Positions 23,101-50,888 of a stretch of DNA of 64,000 nucleotides are shown one piece after another. The position numbers were made by a program, and so were the translations under genes. Source of the DNA: Hormiphora californensis. Lineage: Eukaryota > Animalia > Ctenophora. How positions within the stretch are numbered: the stretch's first letter is position 1; each line of letters starts with the position of its first letter. The stretch covers positions 6,510,001 through 6,574,000 of the forward strand of contig CM035351.1 of the NCBI GenBank assembly GCA_020137815.1, read 5' to 3'. The notes under the pieces were generated by a model. The model searched no databases and was not told the DNA's origin. It saw nothing but the letters and a program-made list of their open reading frames with translations.

Positions 23101-26100
23101 AATTTTTGTCTTCTTCCTCTACTTGAGATAAAGCAGCAAAAGTTGAAACTATCCAATATTTCAGGTTCACAACACTATGGGGACGTCATGTGTCAGGTAG
23201 CTGTAGTTTGATGCAGTTTAAACTGAGAGACTACCCAACTGAGCTGTGGAAATTCTCCAACATGAGCCTAACCGGTAAACCGCAGCAAAATGCCTTTTTG
23301 GAACTAAATTTCAAACTTCAAACATTGTTTTCTTATTCACAGAACAAGTTCATCTCTAAGAAATCCAATACAATAATTAATCAACTTGTGACAGTTGTAC
23401 AACGAACCTAAGCTCACCTAATCGTGTTCTTCCTGTCTAGGCTTCATGTGTGGGGCAGAGGCTGTCTCTCCAAATCACGCCATCAGAAAGACTAAAGTTG
23501 TCCTAAAGAAACCTTGGAAAACATTTGAGCTGGCTCGGGGGATGAACCCCCTCAAGTTCTTCTACAACTTGGATGTTGGTAAGTTTCAAGGATTCACTGT
23601 CAGGGTGAGACCACTGTCCTCACTCCGCTCAAAGTGAAGCGCACGAGAAAGGGCTAGTGCGTTGCCTGACAGCCCCCTGGCCCTGGTAGTTCATATCAGA
23701 CCTATTCTTAACCCCAGGGGGAACCAACCACTATTACTAACCCATATTTCCCCTGCACAACAGGTGTTGAAGTGTTTGATGTGGGTTGGGGAGCATGTTT
23801 GGAGCCTGCTTACCAGTTCTTTGGGCAGGCACTCGATCGGATCACTAAAAAGTCCCTGGACCCCTCCCCGCTCCTCCCCTTCTGGGACAAATTCAGAAAC
23901 ATCCTGCGGGGAGACCTCCGTATCTCTTCCCCTCGATTCACTATGAAGCTACTAAGTGAACGGGATCCCCTAAACAGTTCGGAGTACCTCTCTCTTTGTT
24001 CAGAGGATTTTGTATTCACATGGACAAACGGTGAGAAATTATACAACATGCGGAGTTGTGTCTCTTAAATATACCGTTACCCACCAATATGAGCTCTCTT
24101 ATATTACGAAACCCTCCTTCTATCTAAAATTGTACTAAAATCATCATCCTTCTATTTAAAAAAATTGTACTAACAATACCCCTCTTATTTTCAGGAAGGT
24201 TAGTGTTTGAGGGTGACACAGTGATCAAGAACAACAGCGAAAACAAGTATGGGGAGTGCCAGTTCATGACACTACCCAAACTCACCCTCTCATTCGATAT
24301 GATCTGGACGGTACGACACACCGGACACCCTGATGACCACTGGAGCTCCACTCCCCACGATCCCCGGTTTATCAAACCCTCCACCGAGAAATGGGACAGT
24401 TACCGGGACTTTAGGTCGTTATACCTCGACCTGAGGATCGGAATGAGGTTCGCTAGTGGGGAGGGATCTTTCCCCCGGATCAACTTGTACAGTAACACTC
24501 TGAAGTGGTTGGACTCTTGGTGGGTTGCCATGTCAACGGTATCCAGGCCTGTCTACAAAGGTCCTCTGTGGTGCAACCTCAAACCCCCGAAACAGAAGAT
24601 GGCACGGCATCTGAGGCGTGTGGAGTTTGAGACAATGTTCGACCAAGCCGAGGCGGAGGTGTGGACCTCCTTCAGAAAGAGGGCCGGTGCGAGGTTAACT
24701 GTAGGAGCAGGGAGTCTGCTGATCAACTATAAGTTATCACTATCAGAGTGGCCCCCTTATGAGCACTTTGACCCCATATCTGACGAGGTCCAGTACATAG
24801 TACTGTCCAGGAGACTTCGTATGAACTGGGAGACAGACAAGTGTTTGGCACATCTCAACAGTATCCAGTGTGTCCTGCTAGGGTCTGCGGGGGAGGAAGA
24901 TATCTTTGATACCAGGACTGCCCCCTCCTTCTTCCTTCTCTCTGTTGGCCTGGTGAAGTATAGTCAGAAGGATGAGAGGAGTCTCAGCACTGACTCGTTA
25001 AATAGCACCCACAGCAGAGAGAGCAGGGCATATTCCCACCAGGTTGAGATAAAGAATGTGAGAGGTAGCATTAACAAGGATACCAGAGAGCTCTTCCTAG
25101 CATTCCTCACCCAGTTTGAGAACAACAGGGCCCTGAAAAGGGATCTCTCCTCTGAGGCGATGAGAACTATTAGTTTTGATCAGAGGAAACACTCTAACAA
25201 GGTTGATAACTCCAAGGTGGAGCGATCGAAGAGTAACAGTGAGTGTGAGGGGACAGGGAGTGCGGTTCTATCCCAGATAGAGGGTGCTGTCAGTAGGGAT
25301 AAGTTAGATGAAACTAGCACGTCACGGGAGAAGTTGGCGGCTGAGGAAGCCTGTTCAGATGATGATATAAAGAACTGGCAGTGGTGTATCACGATAACTA
25401 ACGGGCAGGCGTCCATCCAGGGTCCCGAACAAAACGGTCTGCTACTTCTAACCACGGGGAAGTGTAGGGTGTTAGGGAAGGAGCATCAACCTGTACAGAG
25501 GGGTGGAGAATTCTTCTCCAAATTCTCCTGGACTTGTATTGTGGAGTATGTACAATACTTTGCTACTGTCAAAGAGGCACCTGATATGGTGATACCCTGG
25601 TTAGAACCGGAGGTGATATCCTCTAATAATAGAGTTAGGACAGACTCCACTGAGCCTGAATCGGTTGAGTCCCTCATCTCAGAAGACCAGGAGGAGAGTC
25701 TGAAGGGGCTGGTCAAGGAGGTACTAAACAAGGATGGGGTGCCTGTAACCATGTTACAGAGGATTGTCTCCAGATGTAGTTGCATCCTTTCCTTCGCTAA
25801 CTTTGGATCCCAGCCCCTCCAAGAGGACCCACAACTCAGTACTGACTCCATTCTTCAGACCCAGGAGCAACGATTCGGGGCATCAGAGCTCCTTACTGCG
25901 TTCTCCCTGAGGCATCGGAGATTAGAGATCGCAACCAACTCCCATCAGTTCAACATAATTATTGATTGTGTCAACAACCTACTGCTGAGGACAGAGGAAT
26001 CTAAAAGGTCCTCGACCCAGCGACTAGTGCACGCTATCAGCCTTATGAACAGCGGGGTAGAGAAAGCTAAAACGACAATAGCTGCCCTCCAGAAGGAAAC

Positions 26101-27509
26101 AAGGCTCTCAATTGGTCGAATCAAGGAGTTACAGAGGGCACTATACGAACAGGAAACCAGGCCCCTACACAGGCAGTTGCTGGAAGAGAAACGGAAGTTA
26201 AACAGCAACCGAGACAAACTGAGGATGACAATATCAGCATTTAAAGAGTTCATGAGTCGCCATGGTAACCTAGCAGAGGAACAGTTGGCATACCAGAGTT
26301 ATGAGACTGAGGTGCGGAAGAACGAGATCTGTATAGACAAGGCAACGTGGAGTCTCACGGAGGAATGTGGTCAGATCCCCCTATTGGAGGTTAACATTGG
26401 GCATGAGCGGAACGGTTTCTCCTACTCCAGGACCATCTTCAGTACCTCAACAGCCGGGGAACAAGATATGAACGATAGGAGGTTCTCCAGTGATCACAAG
26501 ATTGTCTTTGGAGGTTTCTGCGTCAAGGACCTACAAGATGTGAACTCACCCCGGAACATCTTATTCCCCAAAACGCAGCAGAGTGGGGACACCAACTCAC
26601 TAAATGAGATCCTGCGTGTGAACCTGAGACAGAACCACAACACAGTGGGTGGGATCATCATTAACAGACATTTTGAAGTGAAGATGGAGCCCCTTGTGAT
26701 TAGGATTGAGGAGACGGTCAGGAAGGAGATCCAGAGATTCTTCGTGGGGGAAGATCGGGGTAGAGAGGATGATATTATGGATATGCAGGATGATAACATG
26801 TCAATAGATCCAATTGACTACGCTGTGAAGATGAAGGCCGAGACCTCTAAACGGGATAAAAGGGGTCGAGGGGGCATCAAGAAGTTGACTAAAGGGTCCA
26901 GTCAGAGTGATCTCGATGTGATGGAGAAGAGGAACCAGCAGCCATTCTTCCAGACCATCAGAATCCCTGAGTTCACCGTGATACTCTCCTACAGGTCCCG
27001 TCTTATCTCAGTAACCGATAAGAAGTTACATTTCCGTCCCATTAATCTCAGTGACAGAAGATTCACATGGAGAGAGCTTGCACTGGTGGTCAAGAAGGAG
27101 ATTATCAAGCAGTCTACGAACCTGATCAGACGTAACAAACAGAACCCCCTCTCTCGTCTCCTTCACAACACCACCAACATAGGTAGTGATACGAATGAGG
27201 ATGAGATATCCAGCCTTCTGGTTGGGAGGGACACTGAGGACACCCTTACGAAGGGATCAGGGACTGCCGGGAGCAAACTAAAGAACACCATTGTCTCTTT
27301 TGAAACCTAGGAAGCTGAGGACAGTACCCTCCCACCCTGTAGAGCAGGACGTGTGTGTGAAGGAGGGGACGGAGAATCCTGGGGAGTGGGAGAGCGAGGA
27401 ACCTAGTATAGAGGACACTATTGGTGAGCTCATGATGGTTAGTAGACCCAGTGTAACAGATGAGGGTAGTGATAAGGAGGAGGAAGAGTATTCAATTTCA
27501 TCAGACTGA
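17117..27509 (+). CDS. BLTP2: Bridge-like lipid transfer protein 2 (KIAA0100/Hobbit/Fmp27), multi-exon
   Basis: Exon 1 encodes the TM anchor MDIWLYFVFLLVAVLAVFCLSR then GTAAG; internal motifs FKLRDYP...LW, MNPLKFFY, DPSPLLPFWDKFR, DSYRDFRS, LQRIVSRC, VGGIII.RHFEV; 3.1-kb terminal exon 24196-27310, with a possible frameshift into 27291-27509; exon boundaries approximate. Confidence 0.85.
22130..22270. repeat. Intronic minisatellite (~30-bp unit GGGGGTCTTACATAATGTTAGTA)
   Basis: About 5 degenerate tandem copies. Confidence 0.7.
22496..22626. mobile_element. Small palindromic MITE in a BLTP2 intron
   Basis: AGCGAAACAACAACGAACTGGCTGC ... GCAGCCAGTTCGTTGTTGTTTCGCT inverted arms. Confidence 0.6.
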
Positions 27510-32000: not shown

Positions 32001-35000
32001 AGTTTTCAGTTAAGGAAACAGAAACAGGGTTTTAATTTGGGCACGTTGTATCCCTCTTTGCTTGCGCTAAGGTTTTAATTGATTTTTGCAAAACATCCCA
32101 CTCAGATTACCTAATCGATTGTCTGAATCATCCCTGAATTTCACAGGACCGGTAACTTGGCTCTGTATGGATTTCATCTGGTTCTGCAGCACTGACTCAT
32201 CCGCAGCAAGCACAGCACTATTCTGAAATATGAGCAACATGTTAGATAACTGTGTTAGGTTGTGTTAGTTGTAACACAAACAATCTCAAATAATGTCAAA
32301 TATATTGGTCCTACATAGAGTGCTGAGTCACTGTACTGTCGCGGGGGTATAGGTGGCATGTAGTTGGTGTATATCGAGGGTTCACTGTGCTGTCTTGGGG
32401 GCAGTCCCCCGCCCTGGTACCCCCGACCCTGGTACCGGGGTTTCAGCGTCGTGTAAACTGTCGTGTCGTGGCGTCTGTTAGGTTTTGAGAATGCCCCACT
32501 TGATTCTGTAGCCTCTACCCCGCTCGTGCTGAGTGTCTTTGGTCCCGTCAGTTTGTTGATAACAACTGGTGTCTGTAATGTTAGGAGTAGGGGAATAGGT
32601 GTCTGTAATGTTAGGAGTAGGGGAAGGTGTCTGTATGTAACATGTGTTCTTTCTGTCTTATAGTTCTCTCTGTGTAATAACATGATCTCTCTGTATTATA
32701 ACATGTTTTCTCTGTATGTTATAGTTCACTTTGTAGTAGCTCTCTCACTAAAGCGAAATAGTATCTTTAGGATGATTCACGGTATAGCTGCCTAGTAATA
32801 GCTGGTCCCCCATCAATTCATTTAAATTATAGCCCTTTCCCCCTTTTACTAATTAGCCCTCTAATTTACCGAAATCTCGACTATCAGAGAGGGACAGAGA
32901 GAGAGAGAGAGAGGAGACTGGGATAGAGGGACTGGGATAGAGAAAGAGGGAAAGCACTTCAGTTATGTCAAGTACTACAGGTCTCTCTCTCACCAGTAGA
33001 CTGACACGATGGTAATTATTATAGCCCCCCCTATTGCTTGTCACCCTTTCTTAATTATAATTTCCTGTCAGATCTAGAACCCCATTTAGCATCCCCCTTT
33101 ACCTGTTGAAGCTGCTGTAGTGCTTTTGCAGCAACAAACATGGCAGCATCACGCTCAGACCGAGTAGGGGATGTTGTCGCACTGGTGGTGGTGGTGTGTT
33201 TAATGGGAGACGGTTTAATGATGGTAGGGGTGAATGCGGGTCTGGTTGCCATGGTGTTGGTTGGGCATTCTTCGTACTGACAACCTGCATCCCTGGTAAC
33301 TGGGGCTATCTGGGAACCACGACACACCTGAGGAGGAGGGGGAGGGAGGGTTAGAAGGGTGGGGGTTAGAAGAGGGGGAGGGATCAGGGTTAAGAGGGAG
33401 GTTAAGAGGGGCTTCAGAGCAGGAAACGACCGAACCGGGTTTTTTTCCACCGAACCGAACCGAACCGAATTTGAAAAACTTTTTTACCGAACCGAACCGA
33501 ACCGAACCGAACCGAATTTCGGTAACCGAACCGAACCGAACCATACAAAACTTTTTCTGTAGGTATAAATGTTTCTCTAAAAAGTCATGGAGAGCACCGA
33601 TCAAGGTATTGAGAATCATTCTCTGAAATTTTGTTAAAAAATGTTTGAAAAAATTTCAAAGTCAATTTTGTGAAAAAATTTTCAAAGTCAATTTTATCGT
33701 AAATTTTCTATGTCAATATTTGCGTACGAATCGTGTTTCGAATCGGCAATGCTATACGGGAATGGTATTGCTAATTAGCAGGATTAAACGAACCATGAAT
33801 CGTGTCTCTCTAAATTTCCTAATTAGATTTGATGGGGGATCACGTATCAGCACAATCCATCTCGGACCCACTAATTACCAACATCACTCCCGTTTAGCAT
33901 TGTCGATTAGAAACACGATTCGTATACCATAATTTACTTAAAATATTTTTCACAAAAAAAATTTCACAAAATTTCAGGTAATGATTCTCAATACCTTGAT
34001 CGATGCTCTCCATGAATTTTTAGAGAAACATTTAATTTTGTGAAAAAACTTTGTAAAATATTTCAAAGTCAATTTCGGAAAAAAAATTCTATGTCAATTT
34101 TGCCGTACGAATCGTGTTGCGAATCGGTGATGCTATGCGGCAGTGCTCTCGCTAATTAGCAGGATTTATTGAAACATGAATCGTTTCCCCTAAACTTCCT
34201 AATTAGATTTGATGGGGGATCACGTATCAGCATAATCCATTTCGGACCCACTAATTAGCAACATCACTCCCGCTTAGCAATACCGATTCGAAACACGATT
34301 CGTACGCAAAAATTGACATAGAAAAATTTCCATAAAATTGACTTTGAAATATTTTTTACAAAATTTCAGAGAATGATTCTTAACACCTTGATCGGTGCTC
34401 TCCATAAATCTTTTGAAAAAAAAGTTTCTGAATTTGTTGACCCTCTCATGAGGACACGATTCGACGGGAAGTCAGGTATCAAATCAATCCATATCGAACC
34501 CGCTAACTAGCGAAATCATTTCCACATAGCACCACCGATTCGAAATAGGGTTAATATGGCGAAATTGACATTGAAATCCATACAATTTTCGTGAAATAAT
34601 TGAAAAATTTTGCATGAAAAAGCCCGATTTCTGGGCATTTTTTGACCAAAAAATTCGGTGGTTCGGCCAAAATTTCCTACCGAACCGAACCGAACCGAAC
34701 CGCCCAAAAAACACCGAATTTCCGAACCGAACCGAACCGAACCGAATATTCGGTCGCTTCCTGCTTCAGAGGGAGGGATCAGGATTAGAAGGTTTCAGAA
34801 TCATTACTACTTAGCAGGGGACGATTACTGCAGAGGTGATGTGGATTGGTGGAATATTGTCGAGTGATTGTCTGGGTGTGGAGTGGTGTGGAGTATTGTG
34901 GAGTATTGTGGAGTATTGTGGTGTGGAGTGTTGTCGAGTGATGGTCTGGGTGTTATATTTACCGTGTCACTGGATGCCTGGATGCCGCATTCCGATGTCA

Positions 35001-35083: not shown

Positions 35084-35148
35084 AAAATGGAGATGAGATC
35101 ATTAGAAACTAGAGTCTTCAGAGAAGGGGAGGTACTGAGAAAAGGGAG

Positions 35149-35578
35149 AGTAGTATAGTGTGCACAGTAGGGACCCCTTTTTGACGCGAACAGGGGGAAA
35201 CTGCCTCATGACGTCACAAGTAACGTGATATGAAACACCTGTGCACCGTGAATATTTCTTAACATGTTGCGCTGGCTAGATGAAATATTGCGCTGACAAG
35301 GGCCACCGAGTGTGAGCACTTAAAATGAGCACTTTTTTGTGCTCCGATAACAATTTTTGATCTTGGAGATAAAATAAGCTTGTTCGCAACCTAGCAATAG
35401 ACTCGATAATAGTAAAACGCTGACAAGGGCCACAGGGTTGGCCGTGTGAATACAGAGGGAATATGACGTCACTCGGCATATTATGAAGTAATCATGAATG
35501 ATCATTCAGTGACAGTGAATGATCATTAATGATCATGAATGATCATTTTAAGGTCATTTTAGAGGTAGAGACAAACAA
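35149..35578 (+). repeat. Left terminal inverted repeat of the mini-Polinton
   Basis: Reverse complement of 38286-38715; weaker similarity continues ~35 bp inward. Confidence 0.95.
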
Positions 35579-35629
35579 ACAACTCTTTTTTTTAAAGGAT
35601 ATCAAATATATATTTCACATAATCTAAGG

Positions 35630-36928
35630 TTATACAATAAAGAACTGACGGTTTTTGTTAACTTCAATAATTTGTTCATACCAAGCCAAAACAATAACCA
35701 CCAAATCTTCAGTTGGCTCCCGAAGCATTTCCAAAGATAAACTAACATTCCCACTTCGTCCCAAGTTTAACCCATGTTGATTCTGCGTTTTGTCTTGCGT
35801 TAGATCAAAAGCCAATGCAGGATAAACTCGGTAATGGTGACAAACCAAAGAATCTGCTTTGCTACCAGTTTCCAGAACAAATTCAGCCAGCATATTTGTC
35901 TCTAAATGATCGGTCATTTCCAAAGCTCGGGGAAAATGCTCTTTTCCATTGACATAAAGTTGAGCTGATTTTACTAAACGGAGAGAATAGGGATTTTTAC
36001 TACGCTTATTTCCAATGAGAGCATTTCTATCTTGTACACAGACGAGAAAGAAATAAGGTAGTGGTCCATTAAGGAGATTATCAATTTGAATGTTGGTGGT
36101 TCCATTTGAAACTGGGAAGGTAGTCATGATTTTCTTATCTGCATGATAAATCGCCCTTTCTTTTACAAGTCGTCTTTCTATAGCAGAAATAATAGCATCT
36201 CTAGGGCGCTGGAAAGTACATCTTAGAATTACTTTGTTGAAATGAACTTCATCAGTGTTAGTATCAGCCGCCAGGAGAATATAACCAGAGTTGTTTTTCG
36301 TTAACTTCACATGGTACGTTACCTCCGATGGAAGAAGTTTTCCTTGCTTGAACAAAGGTATATTGAACTCCGATCTCAGGTAAACTTTCTTACCCTCTTC
36401 AATAACTTTAGCTCTTTCTTGGCCACTTGCATTTTTGGGGCTTCCTGTTGTTGGATAGAAGACCAAGTTTTCACTTCCGTCTTTATCGCCCACAGTATCA
36501 AGGAGCAATCCTTCTCTCCTCTTAATCAAAGGTTTCGAATCGTGACTGTTGTGAATAACATCATCCCAGAACTTGAACATCCCGTAGGCATTCTCATAAG
36601 ATTGAACTAACGGTACACCGCCAACCTCAACCTCAACATTCCTCCACAAACTTGCAGCAAGATGTGGTGCAGTTGACACATTTTGATCAGCTGCTGGATT
36701 TGTCCCAGTTGCTGTAAGAACCCGAAGTTCTGTGAAAATGTCAACACTTTCCAACATGAAACTTTCCATAGATGGGATTGTAAAATTTATTTCATCAGAG
36801 TACTCAAGTGAGTTGGAGGGATAAACATCTACCCATTTTGTCTCTACAATGGCTGCCTGGGTGGGCTGAGGATCCCATAGATGTAGTTGAGAGGGAAATC
36901 CCTCTGCAGACTTAATATACTTAGTCAT
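35630..36928 (-). CDS. Polinton/Maverick/adintovirus-type double-jelly-roll major capsid protein (~432 aa from the ATG at 36928)
   Basis: N-terminus SQLHLWDPQPTQAAIVETKWVDVYP...INFTIP, then SLWRNVEVEVGG, PLFKQGKLLP, NPYSL, LAFDLT and GNVSLSLE...VIVLAWYEQIIEV, all matching the Maverick MCP (PY/hexon-like, F54H12.2-like) pattern. Confidence 0.85.
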   Translation of the reverse strand: MTKYIKSAEGFPSQLHLWDPQPTQAAIVETKWVDVYPSNSLEYSDEINFTIPSMESFMLESVDIFTELRVLTATGTNPAADQNVSTAPHLAASLWRNVEVEVGGVPLVQSYENAYGMFKFWDDVIHNSHDSKPLIKRREGLLLDTVGDKDGSENLVFYPTTGSPKNASGQERAKVIEEGKKVYLRSEFNIPLFKQGKLLPSEVTYHVKLTKNNSGYILLAADTNTDEVHFNKVILRCTFQRPRDAIISAIERRLVKERAIYHADKKIMTTFPVSNGTTNIQIDNLLNGPLPYFFLVCVQDRNALIGNKRSKNPYSLRLVKSAQLYVNGKEHFPRALEMTDHLETNMLAEFVLETGSKADSLVCHHYRVYPALAFDLTQDKTQNQHGLNLGRSGNVSLSLEMLREPTEDLVVIVLAWYEQIIEVNKNRQFFIV

Positions 36929-36953
36929 AGTTACTCCTCTGTCCCATTGCAAG

Positions 36954-36962
36954 CCTTTTATA
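36954..36962 (-). promoter_or_regulatory. Candidate TATA box for the MCP gene
   Basis: TATAAAAGG on the minus strand, beginning ~34 nt upstream of the MCP ATG, in a 36-nt intergenic gap. Confidence 0.55.
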
Positions 36963-36964
36963 GT

Positions 36965-37276
36965 TTATGATAACTGACCATATCTTCTTTTTCCAAGCTT
37001 GTTAGTAAGTTTATTAGTTCCAGTCTCAATTTGCTTTGCTGCATAATTACTAGCTGCTCCGACAAGCTGATGTCCAGCTTCTTGTAAACCGGGTTTTGCT
37101 ATTTCAAATCCTTGTTTTAGAATAGTCTTCCCGATTGGAATTACAGTTTTGAATATTTTTTTCAAAAAACCTCCTATTCCAGCACCTGATTGATTCGAAT
37201 AGACACCGAGTTCCCGTGAAAGTGCTTGGTCGTAGACTGCGGGATTGGGAGTAACATCGACATAAGGCACACGCAT
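36965..37276 (-). CDS. Small Polinton core/membrane-active protein (QxGxG site + amphipathic helix; adenovirus pX/pVI-like)
   Basis: NQSGAGIGGFLKKIFKTVIPIGKTILKQG resembles the QxGxGLGxxFxxLFR..P motif of small Maverick/adintovirus proteins; lies immediately upstream of the MCP. Confidence 0.7.
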   Translation of the reverse strand: MRVPYVDVTPNPAVYDQALSRELGVYSNQSGAGIGGFLKKIFKTVIPIGKTILKQGFEIAKPGLQEAGHQLVGAASNYAAKQIETGTNKLTNKLGKRRYGQLS

Positions 37277-37302
37277 GATTGATTATTTTTTAGCTGTAAG
37301 TC

Positions 37303-37314
37303 CTATATATATAT
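37303..37314. promoter_or_regulatory. Candidate bidirectional TATA element between the divergent gene pairs
   Basis: (TA)6 run in the 78-nt gap between ATGs at 37276 (-) and 37355 (+). Confidence 0.4.
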
Positions 37315-37354
37315 AGCCTGGATGTTCATCAAATGATCATCGTCGTCATTTGTC

Positions 37355-37789
37355 ATGGAGTGTATGTATTGCAATCGAATGTTTTCAACTAAACACAGCC
37401 TGGCTACACATAAGAGCCGATACCACAATACTGATTTCCGATCGGAATGCGAGAGCAATGAATCGTTAATCATGTTAATGATGAAAGCAGTTCTAGATGG
37501 GGATATTGTACTAACAACGGCGGAAAAGGAACGGTTAAAGCCAGCTAGGGAAAGTATACGGAAAATTGTTGATTGCGAAAAAAGCCTCAGCGAAGTATTT
37601 GACAAAAATCTTGAGCTAGCAATCAAACTGATCATTAAATTGGTCAAACAAAAGTTTCCCACCCTAATATTCGACAGTCCGAGTAAGTCGTACAATTCAC
37701 CTGGTGATCCCGATTCAACTTCAAGTGAAGAATACGATTCTGAAGGCAGAAGCGACAGTTCAAGGGAGAGTTCTGGGCACAGTAATTAG
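37355..37789 (+). CDS. C2H2 zinc finger fused to a Maverick core-protein-like (PW/pVII-like) helical domain and an acidic Ser-rich tail
   Basis: CMYC..F.....L..H....H finger; MMKAVLDGDIVLTTAEKERLKPARESIRKIV resembles the NxLxGxVxLTxxxKxxLKxxxxxLRxL motif of small Maverick core proteins. Confidence 0.6.
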   Translation: MECMYCNRMFSTKHSLATHKSRYHNTDFRSECESNESLIMLMMKAVLDGDIVLTTAEKERLKPARESIRKIVDCEKSLSEVFDKNLELAIKLIIKLVKQKFPTLIFDSPSKSYNSPGDPDSTSSEEYDSEGRSDSSRESSGHSN

Positions 37790-37826
37790 TATTTAAGTAC
37801 ATATAATAAGTCAATACAAAAGAAAG

Positions 37827-38243
37827 ATGGATGTAATCGTATGCAGTAATGAACAAAATCCCGCCAACTTCACGGTTGAGCTAGAAGAAGCTCTTGATCT
37901 ATCTAAAATGTATCAAGTTGCAATAAAAAGTATATCGATTGCAACTCCATCAAATGATGACTTACCTGCGGGAAGGAAATTAGGACTTATCTACTCTAAT
38001 ATGGTTCATCCCACAAACGTAAATCATGAAAAGCGGAGATTTATGGGTATCTTCCCGTTTGGACTGAATGAGGGCTACAATCATCACGAGTTTACTAACC
38101 CAACATACAGAACTGTCTCTCGCTCAGCTATAATTGAAATGGAATTCGATATACGCAATGTCAAAAATCAAGATTTAAAATTTTCAAATGAGATTATACA
38201 GGACTTCCCGACTGTGATAGCGTTGCATTTTCGAGAAATTTAA
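37827..38243 (+). CDS. Polinton-type minor capsid (penton, single jelly roll), unusually compact at 138 aa
   Basis: NFTVELEEALDL...YQVAIKSISI, IYSNMV.P..V, FTNPTYRTV...IEMEFDIRN and terminal IALHFREI match the Maverick PX/penton pattern. Confidence 0.75.
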   Translation: MDVIVCSNEQNPANFTVELEEALDLSKMYQVAIKSISIATPSNDDLPAGRKLGLIYSNMVHPTNVNHEKRRFMGIFPFGLNEGYNHHEFTNPTYRTVSRSAIIEMEFDIRNVKNQDLKFSNEIIQDFPTVIALHFREI

Positions 38244-38285
38244 TTTTAAAATATAAATTTGAATAACCCTTAAAAAACGAGTTGC

Positions 38286-38715
38286 TTGTTTGTCTCTACC
38301 TCTAAAATGACCTTAAAATGATCATTCATGATCATTAATGATCATTCACTGTCACTGAATGATCATTCATGATTACTTCATAATATGCCGAGTGACGTCA
38401 TATTCCCTCTGTATTCACACGGCCAACCCTGTGGCCCTTGTCAGCGTTTTACTATTATCGAGTCTATTGCTAGGTTGCGAACAAGCTTATTTTATCTCCA
38501 AGATCAAAAATTGTTATCGGAGCACAAAAAAGTGCTCATTTTAAGTGCTCACACTCGGTGGCCCTTGTCAGCGCAATATTTCATCTAGCCAGCGCAACAT
38601 GTTAAGAAATATTCACGGTGCACAGGTGTTTCATATCACGTTACTTGTGACGTCATGAGGCAGTTTCCCCCTGTTCGCGTCAAAAAGGGGTCCCTACTGT
38701 GCACACTATACTACT
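38286..38715 (-). repeat. Right terminal inverted repeat of the mini-Polinton
   Basis: Reverse complement of 35149-35578. Confidence 0.95.
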
Positions 38716-39006
38716 AGGGAGATACTAGGAAAGGTCGATTTTAATATCCCCCACCCTCGATGACACTATCTTCCTCCGAACTAAATTGGGATTACGAGCC
38801 ATGATCATCATCATGGGCAAACCTTAAATCTTGTCAATTTCGAGTTTTAATTGGTAGCAAAGATGAAATTGACAAGTTCGTGGGTGTCATTTAATTGGAA
38901 GGGAGCTGGGAATGAAGGAGAGAACAGGGCTGAGAATGATGGAACCCGGCTGTCCAACCCTTAATGAGAGATAGAGAGGGGAGAGAGAGAGATAGAGATA
39001 GATCGA

Positions 39007-39077
<71 letters not shown>

Positions 39078-39574
39078 CAATACTACACGTGGGAAGGGAG
39101 CAACTCAAATCAATTCGTTTTTAATGCATGTGTCAAACCAGCGAAGTATAGGAGCTAGATAATTGCAACAAGTTTATAACCTAAGCTGTCAAAACCAGGC
39201 TTTCCACCCTTTCTTGTTGACAATATTGTGTCCCGTCCCTATTTTCTATAATTTATCAAAATACACTTGAGACAAGATCAATTTAAATAATAATATTATG
39301 ATAACAGGAACGCCCATATTCCACAGTACCAGATCAGCAATATAATTGACACTGAACTGCAGAATAATCAGAGCGGTATTTATCCTAAAATATATAAAAG
39401 ATACTGAAACTTTATAAACTCAACTTTGCGGCATAACTAATGATGCGTGGAACTGAAAGTACAGAATTAACGGCACAAGACCCCCATAACAAGGAGGAAG
39501 GATTATTCGAAATAAGGGCAAATCTCAATGATATTATGGGTAGTAAGGTTAATGTCAAGGATCATCACGAAGTC

Positions 39575-39609
<35 letters not shown>

Positions 39610-39634
39610 CTCTCTGATCTCTCTCTCTCTCTCT

Positions 39635-39702
<68 letters not shown>

Positions 39703-40575
39703 CCTCTCTCGCCAGGTTTGGTGATTGGTGTTTGGGCAAGAAGAGCTAACACAAACACACGACTACTTGTACATAGGGGGATTAACATGCAATTTAGCCG
39801 GAGAAATCAACCAACACAGAATACTAAGGAAGGTAACGTAAGCAGGCCAAGGAGGAGGGAGGAGAATTCTTAGCAGGATTAGAGCTCTGATCACCAGCTA
39901 GGGGGGGGGGACACAATGAACAGGGCCACGTGTAAACTGGGTAACAGTGTTTTCCAAGTGGGTGAAGAGGCGTGGGAACCTCTTCATCTTCTAGTCCAAG
40001 TTATTATATCTTGTGTGGTGAAGCCTGATTAATGAGCCACTAGTAGTAGCTCCCCCCCCCCTCAACTAGGAGCCATTTACTATGTAAACAAATATATCCT
40101 CAACAACCAACGGGGTGAGCAGCGGGTAAACAGTCATGCAATTACGTTGATGACGGGACGCAACCCCTCCACCAATCACAGGTCAGTACAAGAATCACGT
40201 GATTGGAGGGGACCAATCACAGCCCTGTATTAGGGTCACGTGCCAGTGAAAGAAAGATAACGATAGTGTTCTGTAGACCAGGCGCTACTCTAATAATTGG
40301 TAGGAATAGCAGAAAGGGGCACATTATACTGCAGGATAATATTGGACTACCTTGCTCCTCACCAGCGGAATATTGCTGATTGCGGATATAATGAGAATGC
40401 CAGCCCCTACCAAACAATGCTTGTATCTTAATAACTAACAAAATCCCCCCCCCCCCATGCAACGGGTATATCCAGTAGGCACCATACCAATTCCATTGAC
40501 ATTCTCATTACTTCTTATTCAAAGCACCCTCCAACCCCATCATCCTCCTGATTTCAGAAGATAATAGAAACTCCA

Positions 40576-42215
40576 CACGGTGCACCAGAAGGATCGTCAA
40601 CCCAAAGTTGAGCCCACAAAACAAACTTTTGTTGGGGGTGACCCAGGAGGCCTTCCTGAACATCCCCACGGTGAGAAAAGTATATGTTATCGGGGGAAAT
40701 TTTTGTCAAAATCGAAAAAACTGGTTTTTGGTCCAAATTTGTGCATAACTTACTTGACTGCCGTTTGATGAAATATCTGATTGACATAAAATAAGTATAC
40801 AAGACCTATTTTTGCACGAGGAATCGATTGCCGGTGGAGAGAAATCTCTAAAATGACCGGAAAATTGTCAAATATGGGAATTTTGTCATTTTTTTGAGGT
40901 TTTTGGCCCTTTAACCATTGAAAACGTTGAGATAGGAAGTTGGCAATAGCGCCAATCGTTAAAATGGTCATTTTTCTACGGGATCCCAAAATTTCATGTA
41001 TATCCGATTCATGGTTAGATTTTGGCAAACTATTGAGATGTGCTTACTGAAAAAAGGATAACTTGATTTTCTCGTTTTTTGCGATTTTTTAACTTTTGAA
41101 AGAATTCTGATTGAAATGGCCAATCAGGGCCATGCTAAAGTTGTTTATGGGACAATTTTCGACCAAAATCCAAGATTTCATGCAAATCCAATGACAGATC
41201 ATTGATCTATAGAAAGTTGAAATAGGCAAAAAAGGCCAATTTTTACCATGAAAACAAAAATACACATTTTTTTCTTGTCAATTTCCATCAACAACTGGTA
41301 CCCTACCTATTTTTGCACGTAGAATCGATTGCCGGTGGAGTGGATCCTCTTAAATGATTGGAAAAGCGGTCAAAATGCCATTTTTTGGAGGTCCAAAAAC
41401 TTCCAAAAAATGACATTTCGACCGCTTTCCAATCATTTAAGAGGATCCACTCCACCGGCAATCGATTCTACGTGCAAAAAATAGGTAGGGTGCCAGTTGT
41501 TGATGGAAATTGACAAGAAAAAAATGTGTATTTTTGTTTTCATGGTAAAAATTGGCCTTTTTTGCCTATTTCAACTTTCTATAAATCAATGATCTGTCAT
41601 TGGATTTGCATGAAATCTTGGATTTTGGTCGAAAATTGTCCCATAAACAACTTTAGCATGGCCCTGATTGGCCATTTCAATCAGAATTCTTTCAAAAGTT
41701 AAAAAATCGCAAAAAACGAGAAAATCAAGTTATCCTTTTTTCAGTAAGCACATCTCAATAGTTTGCCAAAATCTAACCATGAATCGGATATACATGAAAT
41801 TTTGGGATCCCGTAGAAAAATGACCATTTTAACGATTGGCGCTATTGCCAACTTCCTATCTCAACGTTTTCAATGGTTAAAGGGCCAAAAACCTCAAAAA
41901 AATGACAAAATTCCCATATTTGACAATTTTCCGGTCATTTTAGAGATTTCTCTCCACCGGCAATCGATTCCTCGTGCAAAAATAGGTCTTGTAGACTTAT
42001 TTTATGTCAATCAGATATTTCATCAAACGGCAGTCAAGTAAGTTATGCACAAATTTGGACCAAAAACCAGTTTTTTCGATTTTGACAAAAATTTCCCCCG
42101 ATAACATATACTTTTCTCACCGTGGGGATGTTCAGGAAGGCCTCCTGGGTCACCCCCAACAAAAGTTTGTTTTGTGGGCTCAACTTTGGGTTGACGATCC
42201 TTCTGGTGCACCGTG
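40576..42215. mobile_element. 1.64-kb foldback (near-perfect palindrome), non-autonomous Chapaev/CMC-like DNA transposon
   Basis: CACGGTG...CACCGTG termini, ~815-bp arms meeting near 41395, 4-bp TSD TCCA at 40572-40575 and 42216-42219. Confidence 0.8.
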
Positions 42216-43201
42216 TCCACCATTGTTCTGCCCGATTCTCCAGTCGCCAAATAAGACACAGTCGACACGCGGGCTAGTTTAATATTGGTAGCAACGGGTA
42301 TATATTTATACCGTGTTGACTCCAAAAATCCCACCTAGTATAGTCGTCCCCCCCCCCCCCCAATAGAATGATGAATTGAACGGTTTTCCAACTAAGTGAG
42401 AACGGTATTTGATGAAATGTAGCTAGTCCGTATAATAGTGCTCTCACTCTCCCTCACTCTCTCTCTATCTCAACCTAACTCTCACTCACTCTCTAAGCGA
42501 GAAAGGGTGCAACTCTAACTACCCACAATACGCGAACCGCGGCAATTGGGGGTTAGGGGGTGGCAAACCGCAGAGGGAGATCCATGAGCCATTAAACATG
42601 TCACGTGACTATAACACAGACCACAACTATCCTACTTGAGCTGCTGCTGATTTGTGAGTATGCTCCATCTCCCTCCCTCCAATACCTCTGATTGTTTTAT
42701 TCCATCCCAGTACCAAAATTGGATTGTATCACACGTTTGAGTAAACAGAGCAGGTCGGGGCAATATGTTCAAGAGGTGAAAGAGTGAACCAGGCTGATTG
42801 GAAATTCACACAAACCAGTAGATAGTATATAATGGTACCAACAAGTCGGGAAATGGAGGGGGTATTACAGCCACTAGGCACTAACAATATAATGGACCCC
42901 TCATTCACAAAGTGCAGCCCCCCTCTCCACACGCCAAGTAGTGCCCCGTGTATTAACTTAGTAAAAGGCTTTTAACGCGTGATCCCCTGAAGCGTTGAGC
43001 CCTCTCCCTGCTCACATTGAGTGACAAGACAATTAACAAAGCTTTAATAGCCTCCCTCTCCATTGACCACACGAAGTGTTCAATCACCCATTCTGTCTGG
43101 AGGACACCTTCAAATCTTAGTACCCCATTACCATGAAGTGCATCAAGGGTGAAGCTATTTTGATACTGGGAACATCAAACTTCCATCTCATGCCTCTACT
43201 T

Positions 43202-43379
43202 GAAGGAGTTTACCCTCCCGAACCCGAAGCCACCTATAATGGAACCTGTCCTGTGGGCAGTTCCTGATGGTGGGGGAGGGGAGGGGGGCTATTCTCCTAG
43301 TGCCGGCGATATCGCTTTGCGATAGTCCCCTGTGGGCTTGCCGTTGGCAAGCCCAGGCACTCCGTAGATAGATAGATAG
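43202..43379 (+). mobile_element. 5'-truncated non-LTR retroposon with 3' hairpins and a (TAGA)n tail
   Basis: 12-bp TSD ATGCCTCTACTT at 43190-43201 and 43380-43391; hairpin GGGCTTGCC-GTT-GGCAAGCCC; TAGATAGATAG tail. Confidence 0.7.
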
Positions 43380-43418
43380 ATGCCTCTACTTCGGATCCCT
43401 GTAAATTCTCAGTCTTAA

Positions 43419-43940
43419 GGGGGGGGGGGGGGGGGCGTCACCTTTTATTTTGCCCATATTTGCCCATATTTGCCCATATGGGCAAAAGTGAATTTTCAAA
43501 AATTGTGGGACTTTGGGCAAAATGGGCAAAAATGGGCAAAAAAATAACTCCTGCACCTTACATCATAGATAGGTTTATAGCCACTATAAACGAAGCAGAA
43601 TTTCACGCTGAGGAAGATGCTTGAATTTATTTTGTTCTAGGACGTTTCTAAAACCCATTAAAGCCAAAAAACCTAAAAAACCTAAAAAAATCCTAAATTT
43701 AGGATTTGACCACTAAAAACAATTTGACTACTAATTAGACACCAAAGACCATTCTGAACGAGTTTTTAAGAGATGACATCAAGGTATAGAGTTGAAAAAA
43801 CGACATATAACACTGAAAATTTCATTTTGCCCATTTTTGCCAATTTTTGCCCATTTTTGCCCATTTTGCCCATATGGGCAAAACCAAAATTCGCTGGGAT
43901 TATGGGCAATGGGCAAAAAAAAAGGTGACGCCCCCCCCCC
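43419..43940. mobile_element. MITE with poly-G/poly-C termini (Mutator- or Merlin-like)
   Basis: G(n)CGTCACCTTTT...AAAAGGTGACGC(n); 8-9 bp TSD (C)AGTCTTAA at 43410-43418 and 43941-43949; subterminal TTTGCCCAT repeats. Confidence 0.8.
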
Positions 43941-46249
43941 CAGTCTTAACCTTAAAACGCCTTGCTACACCACCCTGGTACCAACAAGTCGAAACATGGA
44001 GGTATGGAGGGGGTATTGCAGCACTAACAATATGGACCACTCATTCACAAAGTGCAGCCCCAGCTCTCATTTAGCAAAAAGAGACCTCCGTTAGTAACGG
44101 TTAGTAACCTTCAAAGCAGTCCCCCCAGAGAACTACTACTGCACTTGGAGAACCTGACAAACCATGCCGACATATATTAGTGATGGGGGTCCATTAAGAG
44201 GTGTGGTGAGAGGTGCTCAAGTATGTAACAACAATGGATCTGTAGAGGGGGATTGTTACAGAGCTGTCACGAGAGAGAGACCACTTACAAAGTGTTTCAC
44301 GTGCTGCCCCCAACTATAGGGAGAGAGAGAGGAAGAGAGAGGAGAGAGAGAGAGAGAGAGAGAGATAGAGAGCTATGATCAAGATCAGATATAGCAGAAG
44401 AGATAGATAGAAGAGAGATAGAGGGTGGGGGTTTTTTCTGCGACGCTGCCTGGTCAACTAATGTTAATAAGAGCTAATGGTGGGGATTGGAGTAATACTC
44501 CTAGTATAACTCAGGGGGTACCCGGGGCCGGCCGAAAAATCCACTTAATTTGTAATCCTCCATCTCTCTTTCTCTTTCTCCTCTCTCTCCCTCTCTCTAT
44601 GTCGATATCATATAAAGATTTATCATCAGGAACCGGGGGCATTAGGCCCTCCTTAATACGCACTGATACCGCTCAGATTGAGTTAAATACTGATCATGTG
44701 AACCATCGGACAAGCTTTTAGCGTCTTAAATAACGGAGAAATTGCTGAAAGGGACGGAACTCCTGTACCCCCCCCCCCCCCCCCGGGTTATTATGATTCT
44801 CCAGTCTATATATAACCCAGAAAAACAATTCACCAAAGTTGCAGCACACAGCTATATATTAGATAAGGTGTGCATTAAAGACTGGTCAGTTAAATAAAAT
44901 GCTACAACAAGAAAGGCTACAACAAGAAAGCAGCACACTAAAAGCTTAGTAATGGGTTATTGTAGTCAAGGTAAAAAAGAGGGAAGATCTCTCTATCTCT
45001 TTCTCTCTATCTGTTCTCCCTTCCCTATTTGTCACTCCCTCGAGGGTAAACCTGAGTAAGAACTAGATGAACAACCTCCTTGTTAAACCCTGCTTCTAGC
45101 TCTTGAGAAACTTTCTACCTCAAAAATCGAACTGACCCCACGAAGATCCTCTCTCCCCCTCTCCTCTCCCTCCTCTCTCCTCTCTCTTCCCCTCCTCCCC
45201 TCTCTTTCTTCTCTTCTCTCTCCCTTTTCCCCTCTCCCATCCCTCCTCCTCTTCTCCCACTCTCCTCCCCTCCTCTCCACCCTTTCCCCTCCTCCCCTCC
45301 CTCCTCCCTTTCCTCCTCTTCTCCCCCTTTTTCTTCTCTTCTCTTCCCTCCCATCGTCAGAAAATCCGGGAAACCAACAACAGGACCCCCATTTCTTGGG
45401 GAAACTCTTCCTTTTTTTTTCCACCCCGGATTCAGCAACCAGGGGTTTAGTTGGGGTTTGAAAAAGTTCCCCGATTTTTTTTAAACACCAAAAGCTCGTT
45501 GATTAGTTGAAGCTAGCCGGCATGTGCTAAACAATGGACTGGGTGCGGTGTAACACATTGGAAGATAAAAGATCAATTGAACACTGCACGGGGCTTACTG
45601 ATTATTGTAAATTAAGAGAAAGGATTGAAATCAACCGAACAGCTTGTAGAGAGTTATATATATTGTGATCTGATCATAAATACCACAAATCTGTTATAGT
45701 AGATAGTAGTAGTACTCAACATATTATAGGGGGTCACACATTGACGAGTTATTATAGCCACGTCTAAGACGCTGGTTATAGTGGTAGATAATACAATATA
45801 CTAAAGTATGTATTCGAGCTATTTGATAAATTAAACTATTGAAATTCAGCTTGCAACACAGCTCGCACACATATTATTTCATTGAGAGCGCAGTGCGACA
45901 TGAAACAGGGGGTAGTTAGATCTAACACACATACAATAAACATATTATATATTCTCTCAGACACCTTCTGACCTCACGTAGTGTGTGATCAGAGAGACAT
46001 TTGGTGTGTGTGTCAAATCCCACTAGCTTGTTTGGGGGCAAAGAAAATAGATCACCCCGTATATATCAGTATTATAGCCACACCTTTAGAAGCAATTTAG
46101 ATTAGAGCAGATTAGATCTCTCATCTCCCTAATGTGTTTCACAAGACAAACAAGGTGACCGCCTTAACTCGAGACAGAGAGGGATAAACTCGTTTGTTAC
46201 ACGACCCTGTATCATCACCAAACTAGGAGGAATCTGAACCAAAGAGAGG

Positions 46250-46375
<126 letters not shown>

Positions 46376-49205
46376 CCGGTGCTGATCGTGTATGGCCACT
46401 CGTCATTGCCATCGATACTTTGTAAGGATGGGACCCTGTTGTAGTTATTTTAGCTGCACGATTCAAACCACTAAGCTGGTAAATAGTTGTAGTAAATTGA
46501 ATCGGTCCCACTCTACAAGATGGAATATAAATAGGTCAAATTCTTTAAAAACAACTATGTTAGAAGTTCCAGTCTGTGATATCAATTGTTGAGTAAGGGG
46601 TGGAGAACCCCTAACTCAAGATATCAAGGACTATGATCATGGCCGCTAAATCGTGATATTTGTATCACACTGTACAAGTTGTGATTGAAGGACAGCTGGA
46701 AAGGTGCACATATCAAACTGATGGGATGAAGGCACTGCTCTTGTAGTAGTGTATCGGATCTCTAAACCAGGATCAAGAGAGGGAGGAGGAGAGCTATTGT
46801 GCATCCTTGTTATGCAGGATAAATTGGCACGTGCAGGTCATGTGACCACGAGATAGGGACGTGATCCGTGAGAGATAGAGAAGGGGGAGTGTTGGCCCAA
46901 TTAGCCCTGCATGATCAGAGGGTCATTAATTAATTGACCGGCTAAAACAGACGCCCCTCACATGTGATGAGGGAGCGGGTGGCTGATCGATCCTCTCTAA
47001 AAACAGCTCACAACATGTTGTTGAGTAAGGGAGTGTAGTGACCAATAAACTGATTGCCCCAGAATTAGGGGGGCTAATTACCCCGCGCCGATCCTTCACA
47101 AGGACAACAGCAGCACTATATATCTGGAACATGGCATGTGACCAATTACCACCTTGGCTGCAAGACTCGACAACTAGTAGTAGGAACGCAGCGGGATCCC
47201 AGCCTGACAAGCAGCAGTGATTAGGCAGTGACACGACGGAATAGGAAGCTGCTGTCTGAATTCTCAAATCTGAATTCTCAAACTGGGAGTAGATCTCTCA
47301 CGTTTAGTTAGATGTGCAGCTAAATCAGGTGGGCAAGCAACTAGGTAACTACACGAGGGGGAATTTTAGAAAGTTCAGAGTAGTTCAGAGCTATCAACCT
47401 AGTTAACTTCTCAGTGAGAACTTCTCACATACCAACTAACATTCAATCCAAGCAAAATACAGTTTACGAATACCTCTAGTTATCAAATACAGTTGAACTC
47501 GATGTTTCTACTGTCTAGTTAGCAAATACAGTTTCCCTCCCAGTTTCCCGATACTTCTATTTAACAAATACAGTTTCCCACTACATACTTCTAGTTAGCA
47601 AATACAGTTTCCCTCCAGCTAACAGTAACAAAGATACACATTGTATAGGTGTATGATCACATGTGTGTATACAAAGCTGCAGGGTGTTCCACGCTAGTTG
47701 TCTGCGGGTTGTTTGCATGTGCACCATCATCTGCAGCACTAGACAAACATAGTGTTTGTTTTACCAACTCTCCTTCTCTCATTCTCTCTCCTCCATACTC
47801 TCTCCTTCTCTCATTCCCTCTCTCCCTCTCTCCTCCAAACTCTCTCCTCCCTTCTCTCTCCTCCAAACTCTCTCCTCCATTCTCTCTCCTCCCTTCTCTC
47901 TCCTACCTTCACGTGCGGTCATTGGAGACCAGGGATTGGTGGGAGAGAGTAGGGAAAACTATGCCATTTGACAGTACGGTCTGTCTCCCCCATCATGTAA
48001 AACTGTTTAAACAATAATTAAGAGCTAAACATATGAGGTAAGGCATCACAAAACGGCAGCAGTAGCAGCAGCAGCAATCCATCGCTCCATTAGCATACCG
48101 AACAAAACTGTAGGGTACATGGGATAAATACCTAGCTGATAAATGATAATACCAAATAAACATATTATATTGATAGGTTAACGAAATGGAAATCACTGCA
48201 GGTTCCCCTCATTTAGGTGCACTAGCTGCATGCACCTCCGACCTGGAGAGATCGTTACGTGCATGGTCGACTGCTCCATGTGCGGCAAGTTAGGTGTGAC
48301 ACTATAGGGAGCAGGGAAACTGTTTACTGCAATTGTGGTACATGCAGGGACACCATTTAGTGGACTAGACTGGTAGAGCTGTTGTCAATTCAATTAACTG
48401 TCATATGCCCAATGGCAGGTGTAGACAAGAGATCCCACACACTGTCCACTCTCCCTCCCATGTCTTTGCAGCCGGGTCACGTGGTATTTAGTTGCAAGGG
48501 CTCACTGTCTCTCTCCCCCTCTCTCTCTCTGGACGATAACCGGAAAACAAATGTGTTTATTCTAATTGAATTTTTGAACCCTTTTTCTATACTACTAGCG
48601 TTTTTGCTCTCCCTCTCCCCCTCTCATTGCCCATGTCCCTCTCTTTCTCTAACTCGCACATGTCAGCTTGTGTCAAAGTTATGTTTGCCATGGTTAATTG
48701 TATGAGTGGGGCTAGTAGTACTGGGGGGAGCTGCCGGTGCTGCAAACTATAATCTCATAACCATGCTGAACACCACTATAACCTCTCAGCTCCCATCCCA
48801 CCGGGGTTGTTTGTGGCTGTTCAGTGTTCAGTGAACAGCCACAACACTGTTCACCCCATTCATCAAATCGATAATCTACTCAGTACTCACGGAGACCGAT
48901 AATAATTTCTGTTACTTATCATGAACACTGAACAGGCAGTTAATGGATTAATTTTGGGGTATTGAGGTTAACTACATATTAACAACACCGTTTTTGTGAA
49001 GAGTGGGACTTGTCACCAAGGAACATATCATAGTGGGTGATAATATATATGACACAAGTGCAACCCAAAAACCAAAAACACTGTATATTAGAGAGAGGGG
49101 GAAACTAATCTTGATCTGTTGAGCGATTGGGGTTACTCAACTATAATCTTGACAGGTTAACCAATAATAATATCCAGTAATTTATCAGTAATATTATCAG
49201 TCACG

Positions 49206-50376: not shown

Positions 50377-50888
50377 CTAATAATAGTGCACTGTTAGTGG
50401 TCAATTGTATCTGGTATACGCCTAGGCCATTTTTCCAGGGTCAATGTGCTACTGCGTGTGTACGAAAACAAGTCTAGTGCACGCTCTGTCTGGCGGCGCC
50501 TACCTGATCTGAGCTCACTCAAAACGTGGCCGGGTGCCGCTAGACAAGCTAGACAGGTGGTGAACGATGGGTAAGTACACAAAACGAGTAGGCATGAATT
50601 TCATAAAGCTGTCTGTAGTAGTGCTACTTGAACAAATTGAAAATTGAGATTTGAGGCCCAACCATACTAAAACATGAGCAAAATTGTAACAAGCAAATAC
50701 GTGGGTTTGTTTATCTGATATACAGGTTTTAGGATCTATCTTTTTCTCAATATTATGGTTGGCATGGACTTCTCCGGAAAAAGCAGGCCAAAAAATGAGA
50801 ATCATACAATTTAATGTTAGTAAATACTATTATAACTTGAGAAGTGAATACTGATCAGAATGTGATCCGTGATCAGACTTATCCTGCA

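Follow-up and report, generated by a model that had tools for sequence, protein, structure and literature searches.

Organization of the element

The window analysed in this study is a stretch of 64,000 nucleotides from the ctenophore Hormiphora californensis (GenBank assembly GCA_020137815.1, contig CM035351.1, positions 6,510,001 to 6,574,000 of the forward strand), and all positions below are counted from its first letter. Within it, a unit of 3,567 bp at 35149-38715 begins with AGTAGT, ends with ACTACT and has the hexamer AGGGAG on either side. This unit is a real and intact derivative of a Polinton (Maverick) that carries capsid genes only, and it belongs to an old lineage under purifying selection. 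Its two arms, the terminal inverted repeats (TIRs), are identical over 430 bp, the first mismatch being position 431, and are 98.5% alike up to about 467 bp. Between them lie four uninterrupted open reading frames (ORFs), which code for proteins of 432 and 103 amino acid residues (aa) on the minus strand and of 144 and 138 aa on the plus strand, form two divergent pairs and occupy 2,463 of the 2,707 interior bases (91%), the gaps between them being 36-78 bp. The unit length, termini, TIRs, 6-bp target-site duplication (TSD) and four divergent ORFs described in the initial annotation of this DNA were all confirmed by sequence comparison. The ends are of the (AGT)2//(ACT)2 type given for Polintons in section 7 of PMC8097293. 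No second copy of the unit and no further match to the TIR was found elsewhere within the window.

Each of the four start codons is preceded at 25-51 bp by a TATA-like motif, the inner two genes using the same (TA)6 run. Against a background of such motifs in 12% of the 60-bp interior windows, these boxes are suggestive only as putative promoter elements, and the (TA)6 run is likely a bidirectional TATA element. A metagenome scan yielded 27 related loci, hereafter the relatives, with which the proteins and the TIR (Table 1) were compared.

Table 1. Features of the capsid-only element and its borders, with positions in the window
Feature	Position	Strand	Basis
Left TSD, 6 bp	35143..35148		AGGGAG repeat; empty-site contigs of runs X3 and X5
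Left TIR, (AGT)2 terminus	35149..35578	+	430 bp identical to right arm
Terminal ~34 bp of TIR	35149..35182	+	near-identical form on many other element ends (X5 contigs)
Outer TIR segment	35168..35458	+	contig continuations in X3 and X5
Inner TIR segment, with 10/20-bp tandem repeats at 35491-35547	35473..35578	+	tied to capsid cassette
Major capsid protein (PY), 432 aa, predicted double jelly roll	35630..36928	-	model and fold matches
Putative TATA-like box, 34 bp before the major capsid protein start codon	36956..36962	-	motif only
PW-type protein, 103 aa, conserved Gly-rich motif	36965..37276	-	label by position and homology
(TA)6 run between two divergent start codons, putative bidirectional TATA element	37304..37315		motif only
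144-aa protein: N-terminal C2H2 finger, helical middle, acidic tail	37355..37789	+	weak profile matches
Putative TATA-like box, 25 bp before the penton start codon	37802..37808	+	motif only
Minimal penton (PX), 138 aa, predicted single jelly roll, without central insertion	37827..38243	+	model and alignment
Right TIR	38286..38715	-	arm comparison
Right TSD, 6 bp	38716..38721		AGGGAG repeat

Predicted functions of the four proteins

The 432-aa, 103-aa and 138-aa proteins gave no match in Pfam, and the 432-aa protein gave none in a sequence search of the PDB. A structural model of the 432-aa protein, built on an alignment of 75 sequences and with a predicted local distance difference test (pLDDT) score of 88, matched the major capsid proteins (MCPs) of PBCV-1, Sputnik, iridovirus and mavirus (E about 1e-16, template modelling score about 0.6); the protein is predicted to be a double-jelly-roll MCP. 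For the model of the 138-aa protein (pLDDT 83), Foldseek returned weak beta-sandwich matches only, the best being to an unrelated protein (E 4.5e-4). On exhaustive comparison, the best six of 48,161 chains were all capsid entries from this lineage of viruses (Z 8.1-10.5), those of PBCV-1, mavirus (penton), Sputnik, EhV-201 and an adenovirus, followed by an unrelated row at 6.7; the mavirus penton itself gave Z 9.9 with a root-mean-square deviation of 3.5 over 129 aligned residues. At the sequence level, the protein is homologous to the penton-position ORFs of the relatives (E 1e-11 to 1e-18), and both of its ends align with their proteins of 249-294 aa, the central 120-150 residues being missing. 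The protein is therefore predicted to be a single-jelly-roll penton of minimal form. Both folds, expected beforehand from the letters of the sequence, were thus matched by the structure predictions.

The match of organism B (run X8) to the window ends just inside the penton gene (37845 onward). A gene model of the ctenophore Pleurobrachia, P0115, ends in a penton-like tail strongly unlike that of the window, and in model P0092 a penton of the long form comes after an MCP. It is the penton that seems to be exchangeable.

The 103-aa protein is 37-49% identical to nine aligned proteins from the slot between penton and MCP in the relatives, and it is named by this position: the slot is that of PW in the vertebrate Polinton gene order (PMC8097293, section 7). 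It is of the PW type and likely a core protein. The MCP, penton and PW predicted here correspond to those of Polintons. The assignment of the 144-aa protein is tentative. Pfam gave zf-C2H2 at E 0.005, weaker than the cut-off, and the middle of the protein matched weakly the PZ-slot protein found behind the ATPase gene in the relatives (HHalign 69%, E 4e-5, over 38 columns only); it is probably a remodelled PZ. The conserved Gly-rich motif of the PW-type protein resembles protease maturation sites.

Absence of enzyme genes

Nine queries from relatives (integrase, ATPase, protease-like ORFs, polymerase pieces and one unlabelled ORF) were compared with the element by tblastn. No remnant of an enzyme was detected, the best E values being 0.05 for the unlabelled ORF and 0.29 for a labelled enzyme. 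The polymerase-like pieces of L009 and P0075, used as queries for pPolB, gave E 0.31 or worse, the rve integrase of L012 gave E 0.96, and the ATPase and protease-like ORFs of L007, L012, L002 and L009 gave E 0.29 or worse. Likewise, there is neither trace of, nor room in the element for, a replication gene of the helicase or polymerase kind found in transpovirons and Tlr1. This agrees with the absence of pPolB, integrase, ATPase, protease and their remnants reported in the initial annotation, and the integration in trans proposed there is supported by the TSD together with the missing integrase gene.

By the absence of the four enzyme genes and by its size, the element stands outside the autonomous Polintons. 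It combines predicted capsid proteins of its own with the lack of a replicase, as satellite viruses do. Judged from its gene content, it should be unable to copy, insert, package or mature itself.

Empty site, mobility and copies

Runs X3 and X5 contain contigs in which 35142 is joined directly to 38716; these lack 3,573 bp, the element plus one copy of the target, and represent the empty site. They fix both ends of the element independently and speak against chance. As two samples have the empty site, the insertion is polymorphic. In X3 both forms were present, the filled junction at depth 46.9 and the empty site at 53.6, as for a heterozygous insertion, and the empty form alone was listed at the insertion site in X5. 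The interior of the element showed a rough contig depth of 334-350 in X3 against about 100 for both site alleles, and of 512-640 in X5 against 308, which suggests several element copies per genome. The element is mobile, and in the best reading the window copy was recently inserted.

Some X3 contigs omit 714 bases (35836-36551, depth 126) or 88 bases (36301-36390, depth 279) of the MCP gene, and others depart into unlike sequence at 35762, 36210 and 36475; these are diverged or broken sister copies within the same sample. One further X3 contig of depth 3.8 links 35173 almost directly to 38667, and is either an artefact or a tiny end-only derivative. In the viral-metagenome run X13, two contigs of 151 bp were identical to the MCP gene at a depth of 4-5; because host DNA may have been carried over, they are not counted as evidence of virions.

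Age, selection and spread of the lineage

Matches to the element were found in marine metagenomes; a scan of prokaryote genomes gave none, and a viral contig collection held no match to the MCP, the terminal motif or the integrase of a relative. Locus L001 is 96% identical and its sequence stops 40 bp past the MCP stop codon. Compared with L001, the MCP gene (this gene only, in this one pair) showed 36 synonymous and 18 non-synonymous differences and a ratio of non-synonymous to synonymous substitution rates (dN/dS) of 0.13 (Fisher p 5e-13). This ratio, which the initial annotation had pointed to as a test of decay, is not neutral.

The remaining 26 of the 27 relatives are 42-64% identical and are ordinary Polintons over their visible extent. 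The penton, PW and MCP genes follow one another in tandem in 18 of the 27, and the divergent order of the window occurs in none. Sixteen loci include the MCP stop codon, and in 14 of them the MCP is directly followed by a protease-like ORF of about 150 aa; the two exceptions, L001 and L007, end within 221 bp. An rve integrase (Pfam E 1.7e-11) and an ATPase were found in L012, and polymerase-like pieces on the opposite strand in L006 and L009. Pfam gave none of the protease and polymerase labels, which are presumed from motifs and position. The polymerase-like genes at L006:3246-4314 and L009:2705-5740 are in several pieces, exon-like in L009; vertebrate Mavericks are described as intronless. 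Another ordinary relative carries two penton genes in tandem (L004:454-2078).

In a quick tree of 96 rows, the MCP of the window falls into a clade that has support 99 on a stem of 0.54; support for the clade is 100 in a 40-row FastTree, which is likewise a quick tree, and neither was bootstrapped. The clade spans down to 56% identity. The nearest named relatives of the MCP are gene models of Pleurobrachia bachei, one of them in the 93% cluster, and the proteins of Mnemiopsis leidyi stand farther off, their MCPs grouping with L009 and L012, which are of the complete type with integrase, ATPase, protease-like and polymerase-like genes. The reduced proteins recur among relatives at 63-88% identity: 8 relatives of the zinc-finger (ZnF) protein lie at 65-88%, with a few others farther away, and the short penton forms 4 clusters at 67-87%, with representatives all of 136-141 aa. 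Among 40 MCP, 34 ZnF-protein and 10 penton entries, exact coincidences of the longest-contig size numbered 6 for MCP and ZnF protein (0.27 expected) and 5 for ZnF protein and short penton (0.06 expected), the expectations being taken from jittered sizes, and one size, 4,308 bp, was common to all three. From these coincidences, MCP, ZnF protein and short penton appear to be linked elsewhere in the lineage too. In organism B, one contig of 959 bp (about 94% identical, 53 differences) runs from the MCP start through PW and the TATA run and across most of the ZnF gene, so that the divergent layout is shared; among the indels listed for this run (12 of 32 rows), the three inside a gene sum to one codon.

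None of the 40 listed clade members lies on a contig longer than 5,953 bp, and contigs above 6 kb occur in none of the 11 clade clusters, as against 23 of the 64 remaining clusters (Fisher p 0.015; 6 of 81 rows were left out, two without contig and four with partial proteins). As contig sizes bound only the interior between repeats, this contrast is taken as weak.

To obtain the layout of the window from an ordinary Polinton, an inversion of the PZ-penton block, loss of the four enzyme genes and an in-frame deletion in the penton would be required. A recent deletion derivative of a full-length Polinton, simply undecayed as yet, would need to combine this inversion with several deletions and the in-frame one, and would not explain why the same reduced proteins recur in divergent relatives with dN/dS at 0.13; the divergent relatives largely refute it, and we consider it extremely improbable. 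The earlier view that the element is not a product of random deletion decay is borne out by the purifying selection, by the conserved rearranged layout and by a capsid clade of its own.

Another alternative is an interfering element that persists by protecting the host, its shortened penton and divergent MCP acting as a poison for particles made by ordinary Polintons. The early and lasting loss of the penton insertion and the several copies suggested per genome would fit such an element. Selfish mobility is indicated, however, by the perfect TIRs, polymorphic insertions and marine metagenome matches; the element has no fixed locus, and all four genes rather than one have been kept. Protection of the host is accordingly very unlikely.

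Composite structure of the TIR

The terminal 34 bp, in near-identical form, were found in X5 in contigs at depths of 8,625, 2,333 and 2,100 against 307.6 for the flank, i.e., about 28 times the flank for one contig and 42 times for the three summed, compared with 1.7-2.1 times for the cassette. This terminal segment is likely a recognition site, as yet putative, of integrase or polymerase. The outer arm (depth 301 in X3) continues in X3 into both the element and other sequence, and in X5 into other sequence only. The depth of the inner arm in X3, 636, is matched by the two cassette arms (350 and 334), and hence no abundant partner shares the inner arm. Only about 154 of this depth runs on into the outer arm of the window, and the inner arm is also joined to different outer sequence in X3, X5 and X8. 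Altogether, the TIR is composite, its outer part being shared and its inner part specific to the cassette. In most cassette copies the outer arm appears to differ from that of the window copy, which looks like a capsid cassette whose outer arms were acquired from another, more numerous family and were then made identical. Protein-primed replication through a panhandle, as in adenoviruses, would have this effect.

The expectation of the initial annotation that a replication segment would carry the same TIRs agrees with these observations only in part: the terminal ~34 bp and the outer ~310 bp recur in other sequence, but the cassette alone accounts for the depth of the inner arm, and most copies seem to carry a different outer arm.

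The same joins bear on the possibility that the common form is a larger element with enzymes in long arms, from which the window copy would derive by replacement of its outer arms. The inner arm does join mostly other outer sequence in X3, X5 and X8, over at least 255 letters in X3, and the window-type junction is uncovered in X5 and X8; assemblies break at repeats, and contig ceilings limit the interior only. On the other hand, the loose letters at the join in X3 open as low-complexity, purine-rich sequence, the window copy moved as an enzyme-free unit, and the enzymes would need to be duplicated in both arms, which is not described in the available text of the Polinton papers (TIRs of 46-1,447 bp; PMC8097293). 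A larger parent form is, in our estimate, quite unlikely.

Satellite or genome segment

Since the element has no enzymes, and yet its virion genes are conserved and its insertion is ongoing, it most likely uses the enzymes of a partner through the ends they share. The element is a satellite if this partner has a capsid of its own, and a segment if it has none. We prefer the former reading, with about an even chance of being right: an old Polinton-derived lineage living as a helper-dependent, capsid-encoding satellite of a Polinton with its own capsid. Comparison of the sequences favors it in three ways, namely that complete Polintons appear to exist in ctenophores, that the cassettes fall into at least five subfamilies, and that ends seem far to outnumber cassettes. 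The grouping of the Mnemiopsis MCPs with complete-type loci suggests that candidates for a capsid-bearing helper exist among ctenophore elements.

Under the satellite reading, an active helper in the same cell would provide a protein-primed polymerase, which would start at the shared termini and produce linear copies of the element; such copying would also keep both arms identical. Transcription of the four genes would begin from TATA-like boxes of their own, with a single divergent element serving the inner pair. The satellite proteins would assemble the shell, to be filled by the ATPase and matured by the protease of the helper, and new copies would be inserted with a 6-bp duplication by its retroviral-type integrase. 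By exchanging outer arms with other elements, the cassette would be able to follow any helper that is active.

Several points weigh against this reading. No helper was seen in this host. All six of the Pleurobrachia-named MCP models found fall in the clade of the window's MCP (five placed by the 40-row tree and P0083 by cluster membership, with cluster members listed for 16 of 81 clusters, 3 of them ordinary-type), which would fit a capsid-less partner better. The shortened penton may lack the receptor-binding part, leaving entry of such particles into cells unexplained, and the majority outer arms, known from their first letters only, could carry genes. X3 may be the source sample of the window, X5 being from a different sample and study, and depth is not copy number.

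Alternatively, the element could be the structural segment of a multipartite polintovirus, a possibility we place on the unlikely side. A capsid-less partner with the same ends would then carry polymerase and integrase, the ATPase and protease would reside on it or on a third piece, the pieces would integrate separately, and the element would be the sole source of the shell. In a wider form, which we also hold to be somewhat unlikely, cassettes would swap outer arms and pentons like reassorting segments within a comb-jelly polintovirus. Besides the Pleurobrachia models, strong purifying selection on a capsid-only unit is what would be expected of an essential segment, and the maxima of the deeper subclade, 5,548-5,953 bp in four contigs, fall short of a whole Polinton. 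The abundance of the terminal 34 bp and the continuation of the outer arm into other sequence also agree with a segment, but shared ends are required equally by a satellite. Segmented pPolB viruses with shared terminal repeats do exist (Vesanto virus, PMC8363768). However, the inner-arm depth leaves no room for a partner sharing the whole TIR, the depths of ends and cassette are far from equal, and the cassettes fall into five or more divergent subfamilies, at least three of them in one genus. Partner DNA was sought by scanning viral contigs with the terminal motif and a relative's integrase and by comparing the TIR with the 27 relatives, and none was found, which also counts against a segment; the best TIR match among the relatives was 13 bp (E 0.41), and no contig of run X12 aligned to the TIR.

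Neighboring features of the window

At 400 bp from the element, a unit at 33437-34746 lies between ACCGA tandem arrays and is filled with nested inverted repeats of about 100 bp; its right end reached summed contig depths of 39,000-52,000 in three runs and is a very abundant non-coding repeat. A long interspersed nuclear element (LINE) is represented at 11299-14241 (plus) by an uninterrupted ORF of 980 aa for endonuclease and reverse transcriptase (Pfam RVT_1, E 3e-33), flanked by ORF1-like pieces, one upstream at 10678-11175 and one downstream at 14193-14588. Another frame that resembles an ORF1 is found at 14975-16000 (minus). An open frame of 1,060 codons at 24128-27310 (plus) belongs to a gene of the Hobbit/BLTP2 family (E 4e-72), and very long open frames at 53810-57580 and 61837-62304 (both minus) encode a UBR1-like N-recognin (PRT6_C, winged helix, UBR box).

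Comparison with known systems

Satellite tobacco necrosis virus and the capsid-forming satellites of phages provide their own capsid and depend on the replication enzymes of a helper. Such coat-protein satellites are either RNA plant viruses or satellites of tailed phages, and none is known to be an integrating double-jelly-roll element. Virion genes do nothing for intracellular transposition, and an element under purifying selection for these genes alone thus argues strongly, if indirectly, that particles are made by animal Polintons. According to PMC8097293 and PMC7805220, no Polinton virions have been observed. The element also defines a minimal shell kit of four genes, the structure of which is directly testable.

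Neither a capsid-only or segmented Polinton nor a segmented double-jelly-roll DNA virus was found in the literature searched, the scope of which did not include Repbase, subscription journals and supplements, and only Tlr1 turned up there among mini, non-autonomous or defective Polintons. No such element is mentioned in the available parts of PMC11296320, PMC8502044, PMC11131425, PMC4028283 and bioRxiv 2026.10.13.758929, nor is a capsid-only element in that of bioRxiv 2025.02.07.637071, which reports polintons without polB but with cargo. Elements below 10 kb were discarded as incomplete in the screen of PMC4028283, and an ATPase and a length of 10-50 kb were demanded in that of PMC11131425. 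Because short or ATPase-less elements are excluded by the design of these screens, the class could have been overlooked in other animals.

Polintons or Mavericks (Polintoviricetes, 'adintoviruses'; PMC8097293, PMC4028283, PMC8502044) have the same (AGT)2//(ACT)2 ends, range of TIR length and 6-bp TSD as the element, and the MCP (PY), penton (PX), PW and probably PZ in common with it, the MCP being about 50% identical to those of ordinary marine Polintons. In contrast, Polintons measure 12.7-24.6 kb, and the element, at 3.6 kb, is without pPolB, integrase, ATPase and protease; its layout is divergent, two by two, its penton is half the size of that of the relatives, and its PZ-like protein is set apart by a C2H2 finger and an acidic tail. 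Vesanto virus of Drosophila and the bidnaviruses (PMC8363768; bioRxiv 10.1101/2024.03.25.586562) are likewise linked to pPolB and have small TIR-bounded segments with related ends, but they have a parvovirus-type capsid, single-stranded DNA and partner segments, whereas the element is known here as a single piece. If it is a segment after all, this would be a new genome architecture for its virus lineage.

If it is a satellite, its nearest counterparts lie elsewhere. The TR-GAG non-autonomous long terminal repeat retrotransposons (PMC4350172) are also short (below 4 kb), mobile and enzyme-free, encoding a particle protein only; they are RNA-based with one Gag gene, and the element, a double-stranded DNA jelly-roll system with four virion genes, would be their DNA counterpart. 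Transpovirons and Tlr1 (PMC5499653, PMC11071308) are, like the element, reduced and TIR-bounded relatives of Polintons. Tlr1 retains integrase, ATPase and helicase, while transpovirons have lost the structural module, and as a satellite the element, which kept only that module, would be their mirror image.

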